Shown here: in pieces, positions 1 to 38,618 of the stretch
How positions within the stretch are numbered: position 1 is the first letter of the stretch
How the letters are laid out: each line of letters starts with the position of its first letter
Virus genome (UHGV): UHGV-0392077
Origin: a virus
Direction: 5' to 3' (one strand)
Length of the DNA: 38,618 bases
Notes under the pieces: model-generated
Databases searched by the model: none
What the model was told of the DNA's origin: nothing
The model's input: the letters and a program-made list of their open reading frames with translations, nothing else
Made by a program: the position numbers and the translations under genes

Positions 1-194
1 TGCTGGAGAATCCTGAACTGCTGGCGCAGGACGAATACGCGGCTCGTAGCGCGGCGTGGTTCTTCTCCAGCAAAGGTTGCATGAAGTATACCGACGATAT
101 TGCACGTGTAACTCTGATTATCAATGGTGGCCGGAACGGCATTAATGACCGGCGCGCGCGATACATCACTGCCAGTAAGGTGCTGACGGTATGA
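1..194 (+). CDS. endolysin, C-terminal part (GH19/chitinase-like lysozyme); N-terminal part is at 38183..38618
   Basis: Open frame from base 3 to TGA at 192-194 (LENPELLAQDEYAARSAAWFFSSKGCMKYTDDIARVTLIINGGRNGINDRRARYITASKVLTV*). Base 38618 plus bases 1-2 form an in-frame CTG codon, joining it to the ORF that starts at 38183. Confidence 0.8.
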   Translation, partial: LENPELLAQDEYAARSAAWFFSSKGCMKYTDDIARVTLIINGGRNGINDRRARYITASKVLTV

Positions 195-673
195 TCCTGA
201 CATTCGTAAAAGCATATTGGAAACAGTTGATTATCGTGTTGATGCTTGCTGTTCTGGTCATATCAGGAGTTGTTGCCTGGAATATACACGGCAGTCGTCA
301 GTACGACGCTGGGTATGCGCAGGCGAAGGAAGACCGCAAAGCTGAAGATGAGAGAGTTCGTCAGCACTACGAACAGGAGAAAGCGACCAATGAACGTGAA
401 GCTCAGCAGAGGATCGACCAGGCGCGCAATGATGCTCTTGATGCTGCCGCTCGCGCTGGCCGGTTGCAGCAACAACTCTTTGCCATCCGTGAGCAGCTCA
501 GGCAGTATAACGCCATTGTCGGCGCTGGGACGTCAGCCGCAGACACCGGAGTTTTGCTTGCCGACGTGCTCAGCAAATCTCTCGAGAGAAACAGACAACT
601 GGCAGAGTATGCTGACCGGGCAGCCGAAGCCGGAAGAGTCTGCGAAAAACAGTACGACACCCTGACCAGATAG
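191..673 (+). CDS. Rz: Rz-like i-spanin (inner-membrane spanin)
   Basis: ATG 191 overlaps the endolysin stop (ATGA). N-terminal TM helix (LIIVLMLAVLVISGVVAW) followed by a charged, coiled-coil-like periplasmic domain, with an embedded +1-frame lipoprotein gene: the classic Rz/Rz1 arrangement. Confidence 0.8.
   Translation: MILTFVKAYWKQLIIVLMLAVLVISGVVAWNIHGSRQYDAGYAQAKEDRKAEDERVRQHYEQEKATNEREAQQRIDQARNDALDAAARAGRLQQQLFAIREQLRQYNAIVGAGTSAADTGVLLADVLSKSLERNRQLAEYADRAAEAGRVCEKQYDTLTR
429..665 (+). CDS. Rz1: Rz1-like o-spanin (outer-membrane lipoprotein), embedded in the +1 frame of Rz
   Basis: ATG at 429 in the frame of ORF 246..665. Signal peptide MMLLMLPLALAGC with lipobox LAG|C, then a Pro/Ser-rich mature part. 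Only the distal part of the long ORF is taken as the gene. Confidence 0.7.
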   Translation: MMLLMLPLALAGCSNNSLPSVSSSGSITPLSALGRQPQTPEFCLPTCSANLSRETDNWQSMLTGQPKPEESAKNSTTP

Positions 674-21288: not shown

Positions 21289-21612
21289 ATGGAACTCGTA
21301 AACCTCAAAACCGGCACTGACAGCTACCAGGATGAGAGCGGAGAAACCAGAACTCGCGATGAATACCCGTGGGGGCTGTGCATCACTCTTAATAACGACA
21401 CATTGAATAAGCTGAAGGCGCAACCTCAGGGCGTCGGAACAGAAGTGATGATAACTGCAAAGGCTGTTATTCGAGGCCTGTCTGCCAGAGAAACTGACGA
21501 TGGTGTTAATCGCAGCGCCGATCTGCAGATCACTGATATGGCAATCGCTCCTGTTTCCGGTGATGTAGAAAAATCAGCGGCTGAAACCCTGTACGGCAAT
21601 GGGGGTGAGTAA
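21289..21612 (+). CDS. hypothetical virion protein
   Basis: ATG 21289, 5 nt after AGGAG. Confidence 0.45.
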   Translation: MELVNLKTGTDSYQDESGETRTRDEYPWGLCITLNNDTLNKLKAQPQGVGTEVMITAKAVIRGLSARETDDGVNRSADLQITDMAIAPVSGDVEKSAAETLYGNGGE

Positions 21613-22217
21613 TGGCCTCTGTAGTAGAGATCTGCAATCGTGCGCTGTCCAATATTGGCAATAGCCGCAGCATTAACAGCCTGACGGAAGCCAGCAAGGA
21701 AGCGGGGGAATGTTCGCTGCACTTTGAGGCCTGCCGTGATGCTGTGCTTTCTGATTTTGACTGGAACTTTGCTACCAAACGCGTGGCGCTTGCAGATACG
21801 AGCAATCCACCGCCTGACTGGGAATATGCGTACCAGTACCCGTCCGATTGTCTGCGCATTACTGAAATTATGCTTCCTGGTGTACGCAATCCAACAGCAG
21901 CAATGCGCGTTCAGTACGAAGTTGGTGCAGACACCGACGGAACAGGAAAGTTGATCTACACAGACCAGCCGCAGGCATGGCTCAAGTATGTCTCTCGCGT
22001 TTCAGATGTGAACATGTTTGATGCCATTTTTATGGAGGCGTTGGCCTGGCGTCTTGCGGCAGCTATTAACATGGCGCTGACTGGGAATGCAGACCTCGGT
22101 ACGTTTGCCCTCAATATGTACAATCGCGTGATTCTTAGTGCTGGCTCGCATAGCCAGAATGAATCACAGGAACCACAGCCACCGGTTGACGAGTTTACCA
22201 TTGCGAGGTTGTCCTGA
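21612..22217 (+). CDS. tail structural protein (putative adaptor/tubular protein)
   Basis: 201 aa; ATG overlaps the upstream stop; precedes the 823-aa tail protein. Confidence 0.45.
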   Translation: MASVVEICNRALSNIGNSRSINSLTEASKEAGECSLHFEACRDAVLSDFDWNFATKRVALADTSNPPPDWEYAYQYPSDCLRITEIMLPGVRNPTAAMRVQYEVGADTDGTGKLIYTDQPQAWLKYVSRVSDVNMFDAIFMEALAWRLAAAINMALTGNADLGTFALNMYNRVILSAGSHSQNESQEPQPPVDEFTIARLS

Positions 22218-24688
22218 TGGCTATCAGTTGGATCCAGCCCAGCTTTGCCGGTGGTGAGATTGGACCGTCGTTGTACGGTCGTATCGACATGGCGAAGTAC
22301 CAGGTGGCATTGCGCAAGTGCGATAACTTTATCGTGCGGCAGTATGGCGGTGTTGAGAATCGACCGGGTACGCGTTTTGTCGGTGCTGCCAAATACCCAA
22401 ATCGGAAATGCCGCCTGATCCCGTTCCAGTTCTCGACGGTTCAGACCTATGCTCTGGAGTTCGGACACCAGTACATGCGCGTTATCAAAGATGGTGCGTT
22501 GGTGCTGAACAGCAGCAATGTTATTTATGAAATTGCCACACCATATACTGAAGCCGATCTGTTCCAAATTAAATTCACGCAAAGCGCCGACGTGCTTACG
22601 CTGGTTCACCCGGCATACCCGCCGAAAGAGTTGCGTCGCTATGCGCATGACAACTGGCAACTGATTGATGTGGTAACGAAGAACGGGCCATTTGAAGATA
22701 TCAATATTGACGAGTCAGTGACGGTTTATGCCAGCGCCAGCACCGGGACAATTACGTTAACGGCAAGCGCCTCTATTTTTGGCGCGGAGCAGGTAGGCAA
22801 ATTGTTCTATCTGGAACAGCCTGCAGTGGATTCTGTGCCGGTATGGGAAACCAGTAAGAGTACGTCGATTGGCGATATTCGCCGTGCAGACAGTAACTAC
22901 TATCGCGCCGTTACAGCAGGCAAAACAGGCACTTTGCGCCCTTCGCATACAGAAGGCACATCATGGGATGGCTGGGGCGGATCCGGTGATGATGATACTG
23001 GCATTGAGTGGGAGTATCTGCACAGTGGTTTTGGCATTGCCCGTATAACTGCTGTAAATGGCACTACTGCAACTGCTGAGGTGATTTCCTATATCCCTTC
23101 GCAGGTCGTTGGCGAGGATAATGCCAGCTATAAATGGGCTAAATATGCCTGGAACAGTGTTAATGGTTATCCTGGCACTGTTGTTTATTATCAACAACGT
23201 CTTTACTTCGCCGCATCGACTGCGTTCCCTCAGACTATCTGGGCCAGCCGTACTGGGGATTATAAGGATTTTGGCAAAAGCAATCCTACGCAGGATGACG
23301 ACAGAATTATCTACACCTATGCCGGGCGTCAGGTTAATGAGATCCGCCACCTGATTGATGTTGGTTCGCTGGTGGCGCTGACTTCCGGAGGTGAGTACGT
23401 CATCACCGGCGACCAGAACAAAGTGTTAACCCCATCATCATTTGCATTCAGCTCTCAGGGATCAAATGGCTCAAGCAACGTCCCACCAATTGCCGTAGCG
23501 AATATTGCTCTGTTCGTCCAGGAGAAAGGCAGTGTTGTCCGTGATCTGGCCTACTCATTCGATGTTGACGGCTATCAGGGGAACGACCTGACCATCCTTG
23601 CCAATCATCTTTTTCAGAAGCACAGCATTGTTGACTGGTGCTTCTCTATTGTCCCTTACTCCAGCGCCTTCTGCATTCGTGATGACGGTAAATTACTGGT
23701 GATGACCTATTTGCGTGATCAGCAGGTTTTTGCATGGGCACCACAATCCAGTACCGGAAAATATGAAAGCACATGCAGTATCAGCGAAGGCAATGAAGAT
23801 GCGGTGTATTTCGTCGTTAACCGAACCGTTAACGGGCAAACAGTGAGATACATCGAGCGGCTGTCCAGCCGTTTATTTACCAGCGATGAAGATGCTTTCT
23901 TTGTTGATTCTGGCCTTAGCTATGATGGAAGAAATACGTCTGACAGAACGATGACCATCACTGGTGGTTCTGGTGAATGGGATTACCGTGCGGAATATAC
24001 AATCAGTGTTTCTGGTGGTGCGTACTTCACCAGTAGTGATGTCGGCGCGCAACTACAGTTCCCTTATACCGGAACTGATCCTGATACTGGCGATGAAGTG
24101 TCAAAAGAATTACGTTGCGACATTATTTCTGTAACCAGCAATACCGCTGTAGTGGTTCGTGCTAACAGGAACGTACCGCCATCCCTCAGGAATGCGGCCA
24201 CCACGAACTGGCAGATGGCGCGCCGGACATTTGGAGGCCTGTCTCATCTTGAAGGCCAGACCGTAAACATTCTCTCTGATGCGAACGTGGAACCACAGAA
24301 AGTAGTTTCCGGAGGTGCCGTCACGCTGGAATCTCCGGGGGCTGTAGTGCACATCGGCCTGCCAATAACTGCTGAATTCGAAACACTGGATATCAACATT
24401 AACGGACAGGAAACGCTGCTGGACAAAAAACAGGTGATCCCCTCCGTTACTCTGGTTGTGAATGCCAGTCGCGGCATCTGGGCGACTACGCCCGGCGGTA
24501 AATGGTACGAATATCCACAGCGTGAATTCGAGTTCTACGATGATCCTGTTGATGATGCTACCGGAAAAGTAGAAGTGAAACTGGACAGTAACTGGGGCAA
24601 AAACGGACGTGTAAGAATCCGTCAGCTTGACCCGTTGCCGCTGTCTGTTCTTGCCGTTATTCCTCGCCTTACTGTTGGGGGGTTCTGA
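22217..24688 (+). CDS. large tail structural protein (823 aa)
   Basis: Long ORF, translationally coupled to its upstream neighbour; the call is from position and size in a podovirus-type tail module. Confidence 0.5.
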   Translation: MAISWIQPSFAGGEIGPSLYGRIDMAKYQVALRKCDNFIVRQYGGVENRPGTRFVGAAKYPNRKCRLIPFQFSTVQTYALEFGHQYMRVIKDGALVLNSSNVIYEIATPYTEADLFQIKFTQSADVLTLVHPAYPPKELRRYAHDNWQLIDVVTKNGPFEDINIDESVTVYASASTGTITLTASASIFGAEQVGKLFYLEQPAVDSVPVWETSKSTSIGDIRRADSNYYRAVTAGKTGTLRPSHTEGTSWDGWGGSGDDDTGIEWEYLHSGFGIARITAVNGTTATAEVISYIPSQVVGEDNASYKWAKYAWNSVNGYPGTVVYYQQRLYFAASTAFPQTIWASRTGDYKDFGKSNPTQDDDRIIYTYAGRQVNEIRHLIDVGSLVALTSGGEYVITGDQNKVLTPSSFAFSSQGSNGSSNVPPIAVANIALFVQEKGSVVRDLAYSFDVDGYQGNDLTILANHLFQKHSIVDWCFSIVPYSSAFCIRDDGKLLVMTYLRDQQVFAWAPQSSTGKYESTCSISEGNEDAVYFVVNRTVNGQTVRYIERLSSRLFTSDEDAFFVDSGLSYDGRNTSDRTMTITGGSGEWDYRAEYTISVSGGAYFTSSDVGAQLQFPYTGTDPDTGDEVSKELRCDIISVTSNTAVVVRANRNVPPSLRNAATTNWQMARRTFGGLSHLEGQTVNILSDANVEPQKVVSGGAVTLESPGAVVHIGLPITAEFETLDININGQETLLDKKQVIPSVTLVVNASRGIWATTPGGKWYEYPQREFEFYDDPVDDATGKVEVKLDSNWGKNGRVRIRQLDPLPLSVLAVIPRLTVGGF

Positions 24689-25152
24689 TGATCGATGTTC
24701 GAATTATTCCCGCTACCGAAGAGCATCTTCAGATGATTTTGCCGGATGTTCGTCAGGCTGATATTGACGAACTGTATGCGGTATCGCTGATGACTACCGA
24801 AGATGCGCTGCGTGTTGGTCTGCGCACTGCGACTATGGCCTGGTCAGGGTTTGCGAACAGAGAACTGGTAACCATGTTTGGTGTATCACCGGCGTCAATG
24901 ATTGGTGGAAATGGTACGCCCTGGCTGGTCGGAACCAGCCATATTGAAAAATATCAGAAGACATTTCTTCGCCACTGCCGCCCTGTATTGCAGCAGATGC
25001 TGGCAGTTTATCCGCGCCTGGAAAACTACGTCGACGAGCGAAACCATGTTGCCAAAGCATGGCTGCACTGGCTTGGATTCAGGCTTGAAGAAGCCGCGCC
25101 TTATGGCGCTCTTGGTCTTAATTTCCACAGATTTCACATGGAGAGAAAATAA
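24688..25152 (+). CDS. hypothetical virion protein
   Basis: 154 aa, start overlaps the upstream stop. Confidence 0.4.
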   Translation: MIDVRIIPATEEHLQMILPDVRQADIDELYAVSLMTTEDALRVGLRTATMAWSGFANRELVTMFGVSPASMIGGNGTPWLVGTSHIEKYQKTFLRHCRPVLQQMLAVYPRLENYVDERNHVAKAWLHWLGFRLEEAAPYGALGLNFHRFHMERK

Positions 25153-25691
25153 TGTGTAACCCAGCCATCGCTTTGGTTGCCGTCACAGTGGCATCCACAG
25201 CCGCGTCAATGTACAGCCAGAGCAAGCAGGCAAAATACCAGTCAGCCATAGCTGATCGGAATGCTGAAATTGCTGAAGCTCAGGCACAGGATTCAATCAA
25301 TCGTGGGAATATTGAAGCGGATCAGCGTCGTCGTGAAATGCGTCAACGCTCAGGCACTGCGGCGGCCACTATGGGGGCTACCGGTGCGGAATTAAGTAGC
25401 GGAACAGCTCTTGACGTTTTTGCGGATAATGCTCAGTTCGGCACTCTTGATGCGTTAACGACAGTGAATAATGCTCAGCGTGAGGCATATGGGTATCAGG
25501 TTCAGGGAATGAATGCTCAGGCACAGGGGGCTGCTGCTCAGTCGGCTGCTAAATCATCGATGACCAGCACTTTGTTAACGGCACCACTAAAAGCATACGG
25601 TGCATACCAGATGGGCGGCGGAACGTGGAGCCCGTTCTCTCAGAAAGCTGCGCCGATTTCTGCTGCTGTTGGCACTCCAACAGGTCGATAA
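25152..25691 (+). CDS. hypothetical virion/internal protein (Ala/Gln-rich)
   Basis: 179 aa, start overlaps the upstream stop (ATGA). Confidence 0.4.
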   Translation: MCNPAIALVAVTVASTAASMYSQSKQAKYQSAIADRNAEIAEAQAQDSINRGNIEADQRRREMRQRSGTAAATMGATGAELSSGTALDVFADNAQFGTLDALTTVNNAQREAYGYQVQGMNAQAQGAAAQSAAKSSMTSTLLTAPLKAYGAYQMGGGTWSPFSQKAAPISAAVGTPTGR

Positions 25692-25703: not shown

Positions 25704-28217
25704 ATGCCAGTTGTACCAACAACATCGGGCCGCCAGGTTCAAAGCAGAGGGATTTCGACGCAGGGATTCTCATCGTTTCAGACACCAAATGTCGGTGATG
25801 TACTTGGCGATGTTGCAGAGCAATATGCAGGTATTATTGCGCAGGCAAAACAGCGTGCGAATGTTGCTATGGCTCAGGATGCTTCTCTTAGCTTAAGCCA
25901 GATAAGCAGCGATCTGCTGAATAACCCTGAAACAGGTTTGCTTAACCTGAAAGGGAAAAATGCTATTGGAAAAGGTCAGGAGTATACGCAGCAGTTTGAT
26001 GCCCAGGTCGAGCAACTGGCTATGTCGCTGCCGGATGAACAGGCCCGTAATGCTTTCATGCAGCAGGCACAGCAGCAGCGCATTCAGTTCACTACGCAGG
26101 CCGGGCGGCACGAGATAGGGCAAATTAATGCCTACGAAGAAGGTCAGTTTCAGGCGACGCTGCTGAATAATGGTAAAAATGCCGCAGCATTGTATGGCGA
26201 CAATGCCGCATACGTATTGGCTAATAAGCAAACTTTCCAGCAAATTGAGGATTACGGCATTGCGCATGGCTGGAGCGACGAGCAAATCCAGGCCAAGAAA
26301 ATCGAGTTTAAAGAGAAGGTTGCTGATGCCGCATTGTCCCAGTGGTCGGCAAACAATGCGACCGCATTCATCCAAAGTAATGGCGAGTTAAGTGATACTG
26401 CTGCTGGAGCTCGCCGTGCTGTAGCAGATAGTGACTCTTCCGAGCGTGCCCGTGGCATACGCAACAATAACCCAGGAAATCTCGAATACAGCAAAACTAA
26501 TCCGTGGGTAGGCCAGACCGGTGATGATGGTCGATTTGCTAAATTCGAAACACCTGAACACGGGATTCGTGCATTAGGGCGAAACCTGATGTCGTATCAG
26601 AGGCAGGGTATTGATACCGTCAGCGAGATAATTAATCGCTGGGCACCGCCTACTGATAAAAATGATACTATGTCGTATATCAAAGCAGTGTGCGAACAAC
26701 TTGGCGTTTCTGCTGATGATCCTCTCGATGCATCTAATCCTGATACCCTGAAGGCGCTTTGTGCAGCCATTATCCATCATGAGAACGGTAACCAGCCATA
26801 CAGTGATCAGCAGTTAACTGCTGGTGTCAGTGCAGCACTTGGTTTATCAACAATTCCAACCAACACCAAACGCTATACCGGTAATGCAGCATTCGATGCG
26901 GCATCTCCTGAGGCGCAGGCAAGTTTTATGCGACAGGCGGATCAACTGCGTCGGCAGCAGCAGGCTGAATATAAAACGATGATTGACAGCCAGGTTCGCG
27001 ATGCGACGGCTGCGTATATGCGTGGCGTTGAATTTCCTAACCCACCTGGTGAGGATGATTTTATTGCAGCTTATGGAGTCAGAGAAGGAAACCTGCGATA
27101 TACCGAGTTTAAGAATACGCAGATCGCCGGACAGTATATAGGCTCTTTCCGCAACATGCCGACAAGCAGCATTACAGCATATGTTGAGCAATTACGCCCG
27201 GATACTGGTGATACAGGGGAGGGGTATGCGGCACGCGCAGATCTTTATGACAACGTTGTTTCGGCTGCAAATCAGGTGATAAAGCAGCGGCAGTCGGATC
27301 CTGTGCAGTTCTCTCTTGCCTCCGGACTGGCAAAGCCTATCGACATGAGCAATAAGGATAACTTTGGACAGAGCGTTGCCTTGCGTGCCGCTCAGGTCAG
27401 TGACCTTGCTAAGTCATATGGCACTCCACTGACGTTCTTTTCCAAAGACGAGGCCAATCAGATCGGTGTTTTCTTTCGTGATGCTCCAGTTTCCCAACAG
27501 GCAGCATATCTCGATACCATCAGGCAGAGTACTGGTGGTGGGCAGGTGTATATGTCAGCACTACAGCAGATCAGTGCCAACGCGCCATCTGCTGCCGTTG
27601 CCGGGATACTGATGGATAAGCCTGGTGGTATTTTGGCAGAAAAAAACTGGTTTAATCCGGATGTTTCCGTGTCTCCTGAAACCGCTGCGCAGACAATTCT
27701 TGCTGGCGCGGCGGCTCGTAAAGGTACTGATGATGCGAAAGGTATTCCGATGCCTAAAGATGCTGATCTTCGCCTTGAGTTTTCTGACATGGTGAAGGAT
27801 GCATTTGCTGGTGACGCTCAGGGAGCATCAATGGCATACGAGATCGCAAAGGATTATTACGCTGGTGTGATGGCGAAAAAAGGCGTGGTATCAGGCGAAA
27901 TTGACAATGATGTCTGGAAACAGGCTGTTAACGTAGCTACAGGTGGCGTGCATGACTATAACGGAATGGGGAATGTCCTTTTGCCGTGGGGAATGTCTGC
28001 AGAGCAATTCGATAAGCAGGTTAATCAGGCTTGGAATGAACAAGTTGTCGGCACCGGGATAAAAACACCGCCTGGTCAGTATGGTTTGCAAAGTTACGGC
28101 GATAGTCAGTACCTGGTGAAACTTGGTACTGGTTATCTGCTGAAAGATGATGGTTCTCCTGTTGTTCTTGATCTGACACAGAAGCGTCAGAGATTCTCCG
28201 GAGATATTCCGCAATGA
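25704..28217 (+). CDS. internal virion / ejection protein (837 aa) with an internal globular insert
   Basis: Largely Ala/Gln-rich with a distinct segment (about 26450-26800) RARGIRNNNPGNLEYS...HHENGNQPY. Role inferred from position. Confidence 0.5.
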   Translation: MPVVPTTSGRQVQSRGISTQGFSSFQTPNVGDVLGDVAEQYAGIIAQAKQRANVAMAQDASLSLSQISSDLLNNPETGLLNLKGKNAIGKGQEYTQQFDAQVEQLAMSLPDEQARNAFMQQAQQQRIQFTTQAGRHEIGQINAYEEGQFQATLLNNGKNAAALYGDNAAYVLANKQTFQQIEDYGIAHGWSDEQIQAKKIEFKEKVADAALSQWSANNATAFIQSNGELSDTAAGARRAVADSDSSERARGIRNNNPGNLEYSKTNPWVGQTGDDGRFAKFETPEHGIRALGRNLMSYQRQGIDTVSEIINRWAPPTDKNDTMSYIKAVCEQLGVSADDPLDASNPDTLKALCAAIIHHENGNQPYSDQQLTAGVSAALGLSTIPTNTKRYTGNAAFDAASPEAQASFMRQADQLRRQQQAEYKTMIDSQVRDATAAYMRGVEFPNPPGEDDFIAAYGVREGNLRYTEFKNTQIAGQYIGSFRNMPTSSITAYVEQLRPDTGDTGEGYAARADLYDNVVSAANQVIKQRQSDPVQFSLASGLAKPIDMSNKDNFGQSVALRAAQVSDLAKSYGTPLTFFSKDEANQIGVFFRDAPVSQQAAYLDTIRQSTGGGQVYMSALQQISANAPSAAVAGILMDKPGGILAEKNWFNPDVSVSPETAAQTILAGAAARKGTDDAKGIPMPKDADLRLEFSDMVKDAFAGDAQGASMAYEIAKDYYAGVMAKKGVVSGEIDNDVWKQAVNVATGGVHDYNGMGNVLLPWGMSAEQFDKQVNQAWNEQVVGTGIKTPPGQYGLQSYGDSQYLVKLGTGYLLKDDGSPVVLDLTQKRQRFSGDIPQ

Positions 28218-30016
28218 GTTACTTTGGCCTTAATCCAGTAAACCAGAATCAGCAACTTGACGAAGCAGCATCAAATCCAGCGGGCTTTAACAGCGATGTT
28301 GGTTTTTTCGACAATGCTGCAGGAGCGGCATTGTCTGGTTTGTACTCCGGGCTGGTGGCAAAGCCAGATCAGTTGCTATGGGCAGGGATGGATAAAATCG
28401 TATCCCCGATTGCTCAGTTTGTTAACGAAAACACCTCGTTCAATGACACTTCAGTTTCATACATTGCTGAGCAGAGAAAACTAGCAGAGCAGCAGGTTAA
28501 GCAGCTGACGCCTGATGCCGCGACAACCGGAACCGCCGGGCAGGTTCTTTATGGGTTGTTCGATATGGGCGGGCAGGCTGTTGTCGGTACAACGCTCGGT
28601 GGTCCTGTCGGAGGTGCAGCGGCGGTAACTTCGCTACAGGGTTTTTCTGAGTTTGAACGGCTGACAGCACAGGGTGTTGATTTCAGGACGGCGCAGGAAG
28701 CGGGATTAGTGCAGGGCATTACTGCTGGTGCCGGAACACTGATCCCTATGAGCCTCGGGTTACGTGCTGGTGGTGCGCTGGCGGAAGGTGTGGCGGCTCA
28801 GCTTGCGCGGACGGGTGAGAGTTCAGTGCGACGCGCCGCAGCAACAGCAGTACGTGCAATGCCAGATATTGCCTATGCCGCAGGTACAAATATTGCGTTC
28901 GGTATGGCACAGCGTGGGCTTACTGCAAAAACGCTTCGTGATGGTGGCTATAGCGAAATGGCTAACCAGTATGATGTGTTGGATCGACAGGCAATTGCTA
29001 TTGATGCTGTTCTTGGGGTGGCGTTTGGTGGTGTCGGCAGATTTATTAACTCTCGCGGCGAGTCTACAAACGCACCAAATTTTTCACCAGTTGATATCGA
29101 TGCTGCACTGGCGGCGAATGCCGCTCATCATGCTGAAATTGATATTGCGCCCGGCGTGCCGATCAACGTGCTTTCGCGCAATTCTCACATTCAGGCTCTG
29201 CGAAAAGCTATGTCTGATGTTAGCCAGGGGAGACCTGTAGACGTTGCCAGCATTGTTGAGTCTGCATCTTTCAGTGAAATTCCTGGGCGCAAGAGTCTGC
29301 TGTCTCAGGCAGTTAATGAGGCTCTGTCATCTGTAGATGATGGAGTAACGGCGCGCGCTATAGAAAATCGGTTGCTTGAAGAACAGGCCGCGCAGCTTTT
29401 GCCGCGTGGAGATAGACAGGTTTACCAGTCTGAAATCGCTAATAGCCAACGAATTATTGAAAATCTCACTGAACAGCGTGCACAAATTCTTGCAGAAGAG
29501 CCAACCGGTAGCGGTAAAGCTTTGTCTCGTACTCGATCAGATAAACAGGCCAGACTTCGCGATATTGACCAACGAATCCGGCAGGCACAAGAACGCCTGG
29601 AATTTTCTCGTAACGCGTTGGCACCGCATGAGCCTGGCGGTCAGTTTTTTGAAGCTCGAGCAGAACTGGCTCGGAGACAGCAGGCAGAAAGTGAACTTAA
29701 TGCTCAGGCTGTTTCATTCTATAAAACAGCAGAGGTCAGGACGCCAGGCGAAGTGGCTCCTTTTGAGCCTGATAAAATATTGCAACAGGCAGAACAAAAA
29801 ATGATGGCGGATCAGGCAGGAGATATTGATCTGCGCATAGCTGAAGACTCGCTGCTTGAATCACCTGACATGATAATCACCGTGCTGGATGATGATGGTA
29901 ATCCACAATCGCGCAGCGCGCGTGAAGTACTGGATGAAGCGAACAGGGAAAGTGAGCAGGCAATACAGGATTCCAGCCTGTTTGATGTCGCTGTGGCGTG
30001 TTTCTTGAGAGGTTAA
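28214..30016 (+). CDS. internal virion / ejection protein (600 aa)
   Basis: ATG overlaps the upstream stop; Gly/Ala-rich N-terminal half with hydrophobic stretches. Confidence 0.5.
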   Translation: MSYFGLNPVNQNQQLDEAASNPAGFNSDVGFFDNAAGAALSGLYSGLVAKPDQLLWAGMDKIVSPIAQFVNENTSFNDTSVSYIAEQRKLAEQQVKQLTPDAATTGTAGQVLYGLFDMGGQAVVGTTLGGPVGGAAAVTSLQGFSEFERLTAQGVDFRTAQEAGLVQGITAGAGTLIPMSLGLRAGGALAEGVAAQLARTGESSVRRAAATAVRAMPDIAYAAGTNIAFGMAQRGLTAKTLRDGGYSEMANQYDVLDRQAIAIDAVLGVAFGGVGRFINSRGESTNAPNFSPVDIDAALAANAAHHAEIDIAPGVPINVLSRNSHIQALRKAMSDVSQGRPVDVASIVESASFSEIPGRKSLLSQAVNEALSSVDDGVTARAIENRLLEEQAAQLLPRGDRQVYQSEIANSQRIIENLTEQRAQILAEEPTGSGKALSRTRSDKQARLRDIDQRIRQAQERLEFSRNALAPHEPGGQFFEARAELARRQQAESELNAQAVSFYKTAEVRTPGEVAPFEPDKILQQAEQKMMADQAGDIDLRIAEDSLLESPDMIITVLDDDGNPQSRSAREVLDEANRESEQAIQDSSLFDVAVACFLRG

Positions 30017-30021
30017 ATTAA

Positions 30022-32496
30022 ATGAGACAGGAATGTATACAAGCGGTCCAGCAGGCGGCGCAGCGCACGTTAACGGCGCGAGAAATACAGAACATTGAAG
30101 ACCGCATTTATCGAAATATGCGCTCCATTGCTCGTGATGACCCGATGTCGTGGAGACAACTTTCCGAATCAGAGCGGCTATATCGTGCAGCACAATTGGC
30201 ATCTGAAGAATTACAGCGAGAAGCGGCATTAAAGAAACGTCGTGTGGCCCTCACTATAGCCGCACGTCAGAGATTGGATAAATTTATCAATAGCTATCAA
30301 GGGGCTGATGGGAAACTTGGCGCTCTTAACCGTACTATTGCTTTTAATGCAGACGGTAAATCGAATTTCCTCTCTGTTGAGTCCAGAACAAAAGCCACTC
30401 GTGATTATGCATTGAGTCAATTGCAAGAGGCATTTGAAGCAGTTGATCCTCGCTTTTTTGGCCTGTTTGAAGATGAAGCTGGCGTGCGTGACTTGGTATA
30501 TGAAATGCGAGGGCAAAATACTGGCAATGCTAAAGCAAGAAAAGGTGCTAAGGCGTGGAGAGAAGTGACAGATCTACTGCGCCGCCGGTTTAATGATGCT
30601 GGTGGGGACATTGGCTATCTCGAAAACTGGGGGATCCCTCAACATCATTCTATGGAAAAGGTTGGGGCGGTATCAAAGGATAAGTGGGTTAGCGATGTTA
30701 TAGGTAAGCTGGATCGCAAATATTATATCCGAGCCGATGGACAACTGATGAACGATGCCGAGTTGTCTGCATTTCTTGGAGAGGCTTATAACACGATCGC
30801 TACTGGTGGGCTGAATAAGCTTACTGATACCGGAATGCGAATTTCCGGCGCACGTGCTAACCGTGGTAATGCATCACGACAGATACATTTCAAAGATGCA
30901 GATTCCTATCTGCAATATCAGCAACTTTATGGCGATCGCTCTCTATGGGAAATCATGGTCGGTCACCTGGAAGGTATCAGTAAAGATATTGCACTGGTGG
31001 AAACATATGGCCCAAACCCCGATCATGTTTTCCGCTCCCTTCTTGATCAGGTTAAGGCAGAAACGGCAACAGCTAACCCGAGTAAAACCGGTAAAGTCGA
31101 GCGGCTGGCGAACAACACAGAGAATCTGTACAACTTTATTTCCGGAAAGACACAGCCTGTAGCGAATCCGCACATCGCGCGATGGTCTGACAATATCCGC
31201 AACTGGCTGGTTGCCAGCAGACTCGGATCCGCGTTGCTGTCATCGTTCTCTGATCTTGGAACCATGTATCTGTCTGCGAAGGTTACCAACCTTCCAATGA
31301 ACCAGTTATTCCGCAACCAACTTGAAGCTATGGACCCAACGAACCGTACAGAACTTGCGCGGGCGCGCCGCGCTGGTCTGGCGATGGAATCTCTACTTGG
31401 CAGCGTTAACCGCTGGGCGATGGATAATATGGGGCCGTCAGTGTCTCGTTGGGCGGCGACGGCGGTAATGCGTGCCAGTGGGCTTACAGCATGGTCAGAT
31501 GCGCACAAGCGCGCCTATGGCGTAACCATGATGGGAAGCCTGGGAGAAGTAGTGTCACGGACACCAGACCTTCGTAGCCTCGATGATTCTGATTTTCGTA
31601 TCCTGAAAAGCAAAGGGATTACTGACACAGACTGGAGCGTATGGAAGCTGGCGCAACAGGAGGACTGGGGGAACGGTAATAATACGATGCTGACACCGGA
31701 AAGCATTATGCGTATCCCTGATTCAGCAGTTAAACATCTTGGTGAGCCTGAACGCGTGAAATTTGAGGCAATGCGTAAACTGCTCGGTGCCGTAACTGAA
31801 GAGGTTGATATGGCTGTTATTACACCGGGAGCACGTGAGCAACTGATAACCGGTTCTGGTATTCAGCGTGGAACATGGAAAGGTGAATTAACGAGAAGTG
31901 TTTTCCTGTTTAAATCGTTCCCTATCTCGGTGGTTATGCGTCACTGGTCACGCGCTATGGGTATGCCGTCTGCTGGTGGGCGTGCGGCATATATTGCGAC
32001 GTTTATTGCCAGTACGACCATTCTTGGCGCTTTGTCGCAGCAACTTAACGACCTTGCGTCTGGTCGTAATCCTCGCGAGATGACAGGAGAAGATGCTGCT
32101 AAATTTTGGCTTGGTGCTCTACTGAAAGGTGGTGGTCTTGGCCTTTACGGTGACTTTTTATTGTCAGATCACACTAGGTACGGAAGCGGCGCGCTGGCAT
32201 CGATGCTTGGCCCGGTAGCTGGTCTGGTTGATGACGTAGTGAAGATTGCTCAGGGCATACCGTTAAATGCTGTGGAAGGGAAGAGTGAGCAGACTGGTGG
32301 TGATCTGATTAAGCTGGGGAAAGGTCTGATGCCAGGTGCGAATCTCTGGTACTTGAAGGCGGCTCTCGATCACATGATCTTTAACCAGATGCAGGAGTAT
32401 TTTTCACCAGGCTATTTGCGTAAAATGGAGCAACGTTCGAAGAAAGAGTTTAACCAGACATACTGGTGGCGACCACAGGATGTCACTCCGCAATAA
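30022..32496 (+). CDS. internal virion / ejection protein (824 aa)
   Basis: Long ORF ending the contiguous plus-strand structural block; hydrophobic segments near residues 650-700. Confidence 0.5.
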   Translation: MRQECIQAVQQAAQRTLTAREIQNIEDRIYRNMRSIARDDPMSWRQLSESERLYRAAQLASEELQREAALKKRRVALTIAARQRLDKFINSYQGADGKLGALNRTIAFNADGKSNFLSVESRTKATRDYALSQLQEAFEAVDPRFFGLFEDEAGVRDLVYEMRGQNTGNAKARKGAKAWREVTDLLRRRFNDAGGDIGYLENWGIPQHHSMEKVGAVSKDKWVSDVIGKLDRKYYIRADGQLMNDAELSAFLGEAYNTIATGGLNKLTDTGMRISGARANRGNASRQIHFKDADSYLQYQQLYGDRSLWEIMVGHLEGISKDIALVETYGPNPDHVFRSLLDQVKAETATANPSKTGKVERLANNTENLYNFISGKTQPVANPHIARWSDNIRNWLVASRLGSALLSSFSDLGTMYLSAKVTNLPMNQLFRNQLEAMDPTNRTELARARRAGLAMESLLGSVNRWAMDNMGPSVSRWAATAVMRASGLTAWSDAHKRAYGVTMMGSLGEVVSRTPDLRSLDDSDFRILKSKGITDTDWSVWKLAQQEDWGNGNNTMLTPESIMRIPDSAVKHLGEPERVKFEAMRKLLGAVTEEVDMAVITPGAREQLITGSGIQRGTWKGELTRSVFLFKSFPISVVMRHWSRAMGMPSAGGRAAYIATFIASTTILGALSQQLNDLASGRNPREMTGEDAAKFWLGALLKGGGLGLYGDFLLSDHTRYGSGALASMLGPVAGLVDDVVKIAQGIPLNAVEGKSEQTGGDLIKLGKGLMPGANLWYLKAALDHMIFNQMQEYFSPGYLRKMEQRSKKEFNQTYWWRPQDVTPQ

Positions 32497-37481: not shown

Positions 37482-37898
37482 GTGGTGTTTTGTATGTCTG
37501 TAGGTATAACCAGCGAGTCTTTAAACCAATGGCTTAGCATGAGTTCTCTGGTGGCGGTGATAGTTGGAGTTCCTCCTGAGGTTGCTTTGGGGGCTTTGGC
37601 TGGGGCGGTAATTTTTGTTACCTCTGCGGTAGAGTATCCCATTCGTCGTCGTGTACTTTTGTCGATACTTAGCTTTCTCTGCGGACTTCTCTTTTACAAA
37701 CCAGCAGCATCAATTCTTATCGGCATAGCCAGCCTGATCCCTACCATCACGCAGGACTCTTTTGAAAAAGGGATTGTTTTCTCTGCTGGTGCATTCGTGT
37801 CAGCAATTGTTGCTGTGCGTATTGGTATATGGCTCTACCACCGTTCCGATAATCCACGCGAGTTAATTCCGGGGAGAAAAGACGATGGTAGCGCATGA
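37482..37898 (+). CDS. holin-like membrane protein (putative)
   Basis: Several TM helices and a charged C-terminal tail ([18 protein letters not shown]). Start ambiguous: GTG 37482 or ATG 37494. Confidence 0.45.
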   Translation: MVFCMSVGITSESLNQWLSMSSLVAVIVGVPPEVALGALAGAVIFVTSAVEYPIRRRVLLSILSFLCGLLFYKPAASILIGIASLIPTITQDSFEKGIVFSAGAFVSAIVAVRIGIWLYHRSDNPRELIPGRKDDGSA

Positions 37899-38193
37899 GT
37901 TTTTTTTGCTTATAACCAATGCATTTATTTGTACTGGCATAGCAATTCGCGTTGTCACATTCCGACGTAACGGATCTCAACATCGAAGATGGGGTGGTTG
38001 GCTTGCTTATTTCCTGATTGTTGCAGCGGCCAGTATTCCGGTTCGTGTCGCCTATGCAATCTGGTTCCGCACGCCAATGGCTGTGGATTTATCTGAGGTC
38101 ATTATTAATGCTGTCATGCTTGCTGCGGTTATTAAAACGCGCGGTAACGTCGTTCAAATTTTCAAAGTATCGAGGTCTAAACATGGAGATTAA
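37885..38193 (+). CDS. holin/antiholin-like membrane protein (putative)
   Basis: 102 aa with TM helices and a basic C-terminus; overlaps the endolysin start by 11 nt. Confidence 0.45.
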
Positions 38194-38618
38194 GCAATTC
38201 CAGCGAGCTGCTGGTATCAGCGATGCGCTGGCCGCACGCTGGTTCTCGCATATAACTTCTGCGATGAATGAGTTTGGTATCAGAAAACCCGAAGATCAGG
38301 CAATGTTTATTGCTCAGGTCGGGCATGAGTCTGGGGGCTTCACCAGGTTGCAGGAGAATTTCAACTACAGCGTCACAGGGCTGGCTAACTTTGTTCGGGC
38401 AGGACGTCTCACTCAGGGACAGGCCAACGCATTGGGGAGACGCGCAGGCGAACCACCATTGCCACTTGAGCGCCAGCGAGCGATTGCCAATCTGGTGTAC
38501 AGCAAACGCATGGGGAACAATGCCCCCGGAGATGGCTGGAATTACCGAGGTCGCGGACTTATCCAGATTACCGGTTTGAATAACTATCGTGACTGCGGAA
38601 ACGGTCTGAAAGTTGACC
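38183..38618 (+). CDS. endolysin, N-terminal part (GH19/chitinase-like lysozyme); continues at 1..194
   Basis: ATG 38183 with GAGG 6 nt upstream; [13 protein letters not shown]...[22 protein letters not shown]...[13 protein letters not shown] matches GH19-type phage endolysins. No stop before the window end, so it is absent from the ORF track; it is in frame with 3..194. Confidence 0.8.

Follow-up and report, generated by a model that had tools for sequence, protein, structure and literature searches.

An Enc34-endolysin-type muralytic domain, probably serving genome entry, within a mosaic virion protein of a phiV10/epsilon15-like podovirus

The catalytic domain in endolysin ORF39 of Hafnia phage Enc34 (Protein Data Bank (PDB) entry 7Q47) is the founding structure of the PHA02564 family; in purified form, as ORF39deltaC, this domain lyses E. 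coli, P. aeruginosa and H. alvei cells with a permeabilised outer membrane, it adopts an all-helical fold that resembles a permuted alpha-lobe of the GH73/GH23 lysozyme-like enzymes, and its proposed catalytic signature consists of Glu131, Trp79 and Tyr95 in the substrate groove (PMC8943055). M4Lys of Salmonella phage BSPM4 degrades purified peptidoglycan in a version devoid of its transmembrane domain (M4LysdeltaTMD; PMC7143992), and protein P5 of PM2 belongs, together with its Vinavirales homologues, to the same family; a P5 model based on 7Q47 contains the same Trp/Tyr/Glu triad (PMC9502842). Here we describe a member of this family within an 837-amino-acid (aa) virion protein encoded by the UHGV virus genome UHGV-0392077, a stretch of 38,618 nucleotides (nt) which is referred to below as the window; the source genome is that of a phiV10/epsilon15-like temperate podovirus of the genus Uetakevirus, 38,618 bp in size. 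Enc34 ORF39 and M4Lys are siphovirus lysis-cassette endolysins with a C-terminal transmembrane domain, and P5, a small protein that stands alone, comes from PM2, a tailless corticovirus containing a membrane, whereas here the domain is internal (residues 248-384) to a protein of the virion module, in a podovirus with a GH19 endolysin of its own. We consider it likely that residues ~248-384 form a catalytically competent murein glycosidase of the Enc34/M4Lys/PM2-P5 type which is carried by a mosaic internal virion protein and used for entry.

The assignment to the family was reached by several routes. Comparison of the 837-aa protein with the PDB sequences by phmmer yielded two matches, both within residues 249-398: 9vvp_L, a 1295-aa protein named 'Gp29' (expectation value E=1.5e-37, the best PDB match), and 7q47_A, named 'Endolysin' (E=4.2e-17). 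A profile made from an alignment of 35 diverse homologues of the domain (A1) matched 9vvp_L at E=2.6e-48 and 7q47_A at E=2.4e-42. The Enc34/PHA02564 domain family is without a model in Pfam and NCBIfam; scans of the whole protein and of the domain returned zero Pfam families at E<=1 and nothing significant from NCBIfam, a line for AphA (E=0.064, 12.8 bits vs a cut-off of 195.8) being regarded as noise. The AlphaFold2 model of residues 235-400, built on the A1 alignment, has a mean predicted local distance difference test (pLDDT) value of 85.8, with high confidence over ~248-384 and with the last helix within the domain spanning residues 368-378. Foldseek, which the earlier note on this DNA had proposed as a check of the segment, gave 7Q47 as the sole confident PDB match (E=4e-11, template modelling (TM) score 0.71-0.75), and in this PDB structure comparison the domain model displayed no close similarity to the GH23 fold. 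In the HMMER alignment W313, Y325 and E360 correspond to W79, Y95 and E131 of Enc34 (the deposited 7Q47 chain is offset by one residue), and the model has E360 at the C-terminus of the fifth helix (fragment positions 112-127), as is the case for Glu131 in Enc34. The invariant or near-invariant positions of A1 comprise the RGIRNNNPGN start, G(I)RA, RWAP, an N-x-x-x-x-Y stretch and HENG. The segment has each of the defining features of the Enc34/PHA02564 family that could be tested, i.e. sequence similarity, all-helical fold and the Trp/Tyr/Glu signature, and is a folded member of the Enc34-endolysin/M4Lys/PM2-P5 family (CDD PHA02564). The earlier note had supposed a peptidoglycan-degrading domain of a family that it could not name; sequence, predicted fold and the three proposed catalytic residues now supply the name.

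This same note, made from the letters of the DNA, had singled out within the 837-aa open reading frame (ORF) a segment at 26450-26800 as compositionally distinct from an otherwise Ala/Gln-rich protein. The segment, RARGIRNNNPGNLEYS...HHENGNQPY, corresponds to residues 248-366 (nt 26445-26801, a deviation of at most 5 nt), and its composition is indeed different: Ala and Gln together amount to 12.6% against 23.1% elsewhere, Asn to 9.2% against 5.0% and His to 2.5% against 0.4% in the rest of the protein, whose two cysteines are both located inside it. Chance does not account for this distinctness: the segment is matched by two solved proteins and by a family with 18,661 cluster representatives. 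The observation was thus right, and only the length of about 115 residues has to be corrected, the folded domain being longer (~248-384, nt 26445-26855).

The closest solved relative of the domain is found in gp16 of Kayfunavirus (K1F-like, T7-type phages), i.e. in the 1295-aa Gp29 of PDB entry 9VVP. A literature search for this entry found no paper, and its source phage group was assigned by tblastn, the aligned N-terminal domain of Gp29 being at least 97.7% identical to Kayfunavirus gp16. In gp16 of phage CLB_P1 ('internal virion protein D', 1295 aa) residues 4-130 align with residues 250-379 of the 837-aa protein (54% identity, E=1e-38), and in a BLASTP comparison of the two proteins nothing aligned but the lysin domain. 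As in the window, the domain of Kayfunavirus belongs to a large internal virion protein encoded after gp14, but it forms the extreme N-terminus of gp16 there and a central part of a gp15-position protein here. Its place in Kayfunavirus gp16 is the one occupied in T7 gp16 by the transglycosylase domain, which aids genome entry through highly cross-linked murein, and the four Gp29 chains of 9VVP agree with the four copies of gp16 in the T7 internal core (PMC8954989). The N-terminal GH23/SLT domain of T7 gp16 (Moak and Molineux 2000, as cited in PMC8954989) would share with the domain described here the same job at the start of infection; it belongs, however, to the SLT/PF01464 sequence family, with the catalytic Glu37 on the first helix, whereas the Enc34-type domain lacks an SLT match and has its core helices in permuted order (PMC8943055). 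A lysin at the gp15 position, and not on gp16, has a precedent in SP6 gp36 and K1E gp35, gp15-like ejection proteins with lysozyme activity (PMC8954989).

The gene of the 837-aa protein is 97-98% identical in nucleotide sequence to those of phiV10, phiv142-3 and related coliphages and ~75% to those of the Salmonella phages epsilon15 and PAT1, and the match to phrog_992 spans the full length of the protein; in a full-length homologue search all matches were at least 96% identical to the query. Its annotations in the public records are uneven: epsilon15 gp15 is labelled 'putative lytic transglycosylase' in GenBank, by virtue of an HHpred match to SltB 4ANR, phiV10 p18 is 'similar to structural protein P5 from PM2', and the E. 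coli prophage records, thousands in number, use 'hypothetical protein', 'head protein' or 'capsid and scaffold'. Conservation among the Uetakevirus orthologues is highest in the domain (84-86% identity), followed by the N-terminal module (72-76%) and falling to 23% in the C-terminal module, a mosaic pattern which is well illustrated by residues 541-837, 23% identical to epsilon15 gp15 and 90% to SPN1S. Searches with the whole protein and with a 4-sequence scaffold profile retrieved no PDB or Pfam match for the flanking modules.

The N-terminal module, common to the Uetakevirus gp15 orthologues, was detected by tblastn in 34 phage records, and in Escherichia phage TL-2011b it is 47% identical. 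The 905-aa gp37 of this phage stands in the same neighbourhood (tail proteins, two internal virion proteins, then gp37), but it carries an SLT domain (PF01464, residues 263-342, 30.2 bits) in the slot where the 837-aa protein has the Enc34-type domain. This pair is a natural lysin-cassette swap and the most direct of the indications for an entry enzyme: since two sequence-unrelated murein-cleaving modules occupy the same slot of the same scaffold, the function of the slot would be murein cleavage. An extra module of ~100 aa is present in most of the orthologues from E. coli prophages (935 aa long and 98% identical) and in the 937-aa protein of Salmonella phage SPN1S; this module is placed directly before RGIRNNNPGN, with its junction at residue 242 (~26429-26445), and is not in the protein of the source genome. 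It had no PDB match and, among the PHROG families, matched weakly a function-unknown one only. In the light of these longer variants and of the TL-2011b exchange, the word 'insert' in the earlier note is a fair description of a module in a mosaic protein. Megablast matches to phiV10-type phages begin only at query position 113-139 of the 837-aa gene (25704-25842), and the N-terminal module, taken here as 25704-26423, is 84.6% identical in protein sequence to that of phiV10, the rest of the protein being ~98% identical; together, these two observations suggest recombination with a breakpoint close to the gene's 5' end.

Gene order also bears on when the enzyme would act. The 837-aa gene comes right after a gp14 homologue (PF24072 T7_gp14 on the 179-aa ORF, 32.8 bits with a cut-off of 27, E=8.2e-8) and downstream of the tail-tube genes, so that the order mirrors T7 genes 11-12-13-14-15-16 and places the protein at the gp15 position. 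A preprint describes a podovirus with an epsilon15/BPP-1-like capsid in which a T7-gp14-like gene is likewise followed by that of a transglycosylase-fold protein. The earlier note had called the protein an ejection protein outright; the label can be kept as a probable one, argued by analogy from the gp14-family gene, from the two upstream genes that PHROG classes as 'internal virion protein' and from the likeness to Kayfunavirus gp16. In the likely sequence of events the 837-aa protein would be packaged in the virion and expelled at infection through the tail with the other internal proteins, and the domain would cut the glycan strands of peptidoglycan locally in the periplasm, thereby allowing a trans-envelope DNA conduit to form. 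This task would equal that of the N-terminal transglycosylase domain of T7 gp16. Cleavage would most likely rely on Glu360 as general acid, while Trp313 and Tyr325 hold the sugar in position.

A number of points weigh against an ejected enzyme. Outside the lysin domain the scaffold has no sequence similarity to T7-type gp15 or gp16 in the PDB search and in BLASTP (best E 1.5 with CLB_P1 gp15), and because the flanks lack such similarity the ejection label is derived from gene order. In the study of Guichard et al. from 2013, epsilon15 gp15 is said to lie in the tail tube/hub and not in the internal core. The same enzyme could thus be fixed in the tail hub or central tube, as a part of the adsorption apparatus, and act from the tail tip instead of being ejected. 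Lysins of the tail tip are exemplified by phi29 gp13 and T4 gp5. Besides the missing similarity to T7 gp15/gp16, such a location is favoured by PMC12391199, where Guichard et al. 2013 are cited for placing gp15 and gp17/16 in a tail 'packaging/injection device', and by a review in which the epsilon15 core protein is gp17 and not gp15 (PMC5850374), the two papers differing over gp15 and gp17. A literature search whose coverage did not extend to Guichard 2013, Kropinski 2007 and Chang 2010 found no experiment on the 837-aa protein or on any Uetakevirus gp15. On the other hand, the gene follows both the T7_gp14-family gene and the two tail-tube genes (phrog_394 and phrog_376), which is the order of T7 internal proteins, and in Kayfunavirus the domain resides on gp16, the four chains of 9VVP equalling the copy number of gp16 in the T7 core (PMC8954989). 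We therefore hold a tail-bound enzyme to be unlikely and retain ejection with the internal proteins as the preferred reading.

With respect to chemistry, the domain is most likely a beta-N-acetylglucosaminidase, by analogy with Enc34 and M4Lys. Bond specificity is nevertheless unsettled in the family: Enc34 was predicted to be a glucosaminidase (PMC8943055), high-performance liquid chromatography on M4Lys suggested glucosaminidase plus endopeptidase activity, and the GenBank name of epsilon15 gp15 introduces with the lytic transglycosylases a third specificity. The domain would, under that name, be a non-hydrolytic enzyme releasing 1,6-anhydro-N-acetylmuramic acid (1,6-anhydro-MurNAc), not a glucosaminidase or another hydrolase, for which the HHpred match to SltB 4ANR behind the annotation, the genuine SLT domain which the TL-2011b scaffold carries at this slot and the Glu/Trp/Tyr signature that Enc34 has in common with GH23 enzymes such as phiKZ gp144 and MltC (PMC8943055) can be adduced. 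Nonetheless, PF01464 did not match the 837-aa protein or epsilon15 gp15 in a search where TL-2011b gp37 served as positive control, and no close GH23 fold match was obtained; these negatives do not settle the chemistry, but they leave a lytic transglycosylase a doubtful candidate, and the GenBank label of epsilon15 gp15 probably designates the wrong enzyme class. A more far-reaching reading, which as a whole is rather improbable, takes the virion-borne domain as a GH73-like N-acetylglucosaminidase as opposed to a lytic transglycosylase or muramidase, possibly with the dual glucosaminidase/endopeptidase behaviour reported for M4Lys. If this were true, the family of ~18,700 clusters without a Pfam or NCBIfam model would represent a chemically distinct class of entry lysins, and the junction at residue 242 a swap site for lysin cassettes and the ~100-aa accessory module.

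That the domain could instead be an auxiliary lysis enzyme, or a catalytically inert murein binder or structural 'wing' of the conduit, has to be considered since the family contains many genuine endolysins, such as those of chi-like phages, of Enc34 and of Mu-like Pseudomonas phages, and since the N-terminal part of T7 gp16 is also structural in the periplasmic tunnel (PMC8954989). Yet the window encodes a complete lysis cassette elsewhere. When its two ends are joined an intact ORF for a 209-aa GH19 endolysin is restored (PF00182 Glyco_hydro_19, 38.9 bits), from which it follows that the window is a whole phage genome in circularly permuted form, opened within the endolysin gene, and this gene is accompanied by those of a holin and of the spanins Rz/Rz1. 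Because the phage has these lysis proteins of its own and the 837-aa gene lies in the virion module, an endolysin role for the domain was rejected. The 837-aa structural-module protein is, in addition, devoid of a signal or transmembrane segment, the three proposed catalytic residues and RGIRNNNPGN are intact, and conservation is stronger in the domain than in its flanks, so that an auxiliary lysis function or an inert domain appears very improbable and a catalytically active entry lysin remains the preferred reading.

The family to which the domain belongs is large: counted by 50%-identity clusters, it comprises 18,661 representatives at E<=1e-3, of which 12,847 also reach E<=1e-10; given that neither Pfam nor NCBIfam has a model for it, automated pipelines miss it. 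The domain occurs in 816 of the 50,697 records of a phage collection. Among its carriers are endolysins from chi-like, Seurat-like and Mu-like Pseudomonas phages, P5-like proteins of small size from PM2-like, tectivirus-like and tiny-genome phages and, in T7-like phages, internal virion proteins. Among the 150 best representatives ~63 are at least 500 aa long and in most of these the domain starts around residue 240-360. One representative of 762 aa has profile matches in four separate stretches, and proteins with multiple copies of the lysin domain may thus exist. The family and its structure, the use of the domain on T7-like internal proteins and the lysin annotation of the epsilon15 orthologue were already public, which makes the finding correct but ordinary; its main value is a precise and better-founded annotation, and it has little weight as a discovery. 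Nonetheless, the slot holds interchangeable murein-cleaving modules, Enc34-type here and SLT in TL-2011b; it thus shows clearly how lysin cassettes are exchanged naturally in the internal proteins of podoviruses, and its modules are a possible source of lysin domains active on Gram-negative bacteria.

Table 1. Coordinates of the 837-aa protein gene, its parts and other genes in the window (numbering of the 38,618-nt stretch).
Feature	Coordinates	Strand	Basis or remark
837-aa virion protein gene, orthologue of epsilon15 gp15 / phiV10 p18	25704..28217	+	ORF list, orthologue annotations, phrog_992
N-terminal module, residues 1-242, Ala/Gln-rich	25704..26429	+	common to Uetakevirus gp15 orthologues and TL-2011b gp37
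Enc34/PHA02564-type muralytic domain, residues 248-384	26445..26855	+	sequence matches, model confidence
RGIRNNNPGN motif, residues 250-259, family signature at domain start	26451..26480	+	near-invariant in A1
Trp313 codon (RWAPP), equivalent to Enc34 Trp79	26640..26642	+	alignment mapping; near-invariant in A1
Tyr325 codon, equivalent to Enc34 Tyr95	26676..26678	+	alignment mapping; invariant in A1 (fragment Y91)
Glu360 codon (HHENG), equivalent to proposed catalytic Glu131 of Enc34	26781..26783	+	alignment mapping; near-invariant in A1 (fragment E126)
Post-domain region and C-terminal module, residues 385-837, mosaic evolution	26856..28214	+	identity contrasts, tblastn distribution
201-aa tail protein	21612..22217		phrog_394 / tail tubular
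823-aa tail protein	22217..24688		phrog_376
154-aa internal virion protein gene, epsilon15 gp13 position	24688..25152	+	phrog_308 'internal virion protein', E=1.4e-61
179-aa T7-gp14-family internal virion protein gene, directly upstream of the 837-aa gene	25152..25691	+	PF24072 T7_gp14; phrog_418 'internal virion protein'
600-aa downstream virion-module gene, epsilon15 gp16 position	28214..30016	+	phrog_1145 (function unknown); synteny with epsilon15 and phiV10
824-aa virion structural protein gene, epsilon15 gp17 position	30022..32496	+	phrog_684 'virion structural protein'
Holin gene, before the endolysin gene	37885-38193		PF05449, 94.6 bits
GH19 endolysin gene, 5' part	38183..38618	+	continues at 1-194 when ends are joined; Glyco_hydro_19
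Rz/Rz1, after the endolysin gene	191-673		layout as in phiV10

Two antisense ORFs on the minus strand, 26574..26780 and 26252..26494, which match no PHROG family, were treated as spurious. Among the neighbours of the 837-aa gene (Table 1), the 600-aa protein encoded downstream displays long Gly/Ala-rich hydrophobic stretches at ~100-230 and a coiled, charged C-terminal half, and it may be a membrane-inserting partner of the ejection module; it had no Pfam or significant PDB match, and the PDB search with the 824-aa protein gave no meaningful one, the matches to PETase (E 0.05-0.8) being judged as chance. The 154-aa protein, an internal virion protein according to PHROG, corresponds to an epsilon15 gp13 which GenBank labels, from HHpred, as a GNAT-family acetyltransferase. 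Table 1 of PMC8954989 lists epsilon15 gp11 (229 aa), gp12 (499 aa) and gp13 (708 aa) as T7 gp14-, gp15- and gp16-like, respectively; these sizes disagree with those of record AY150271.2 (gp11 606 nt, gp12 2478 nt, gp13 465 nt), and the entry probably refers to a different, P22-like phage.

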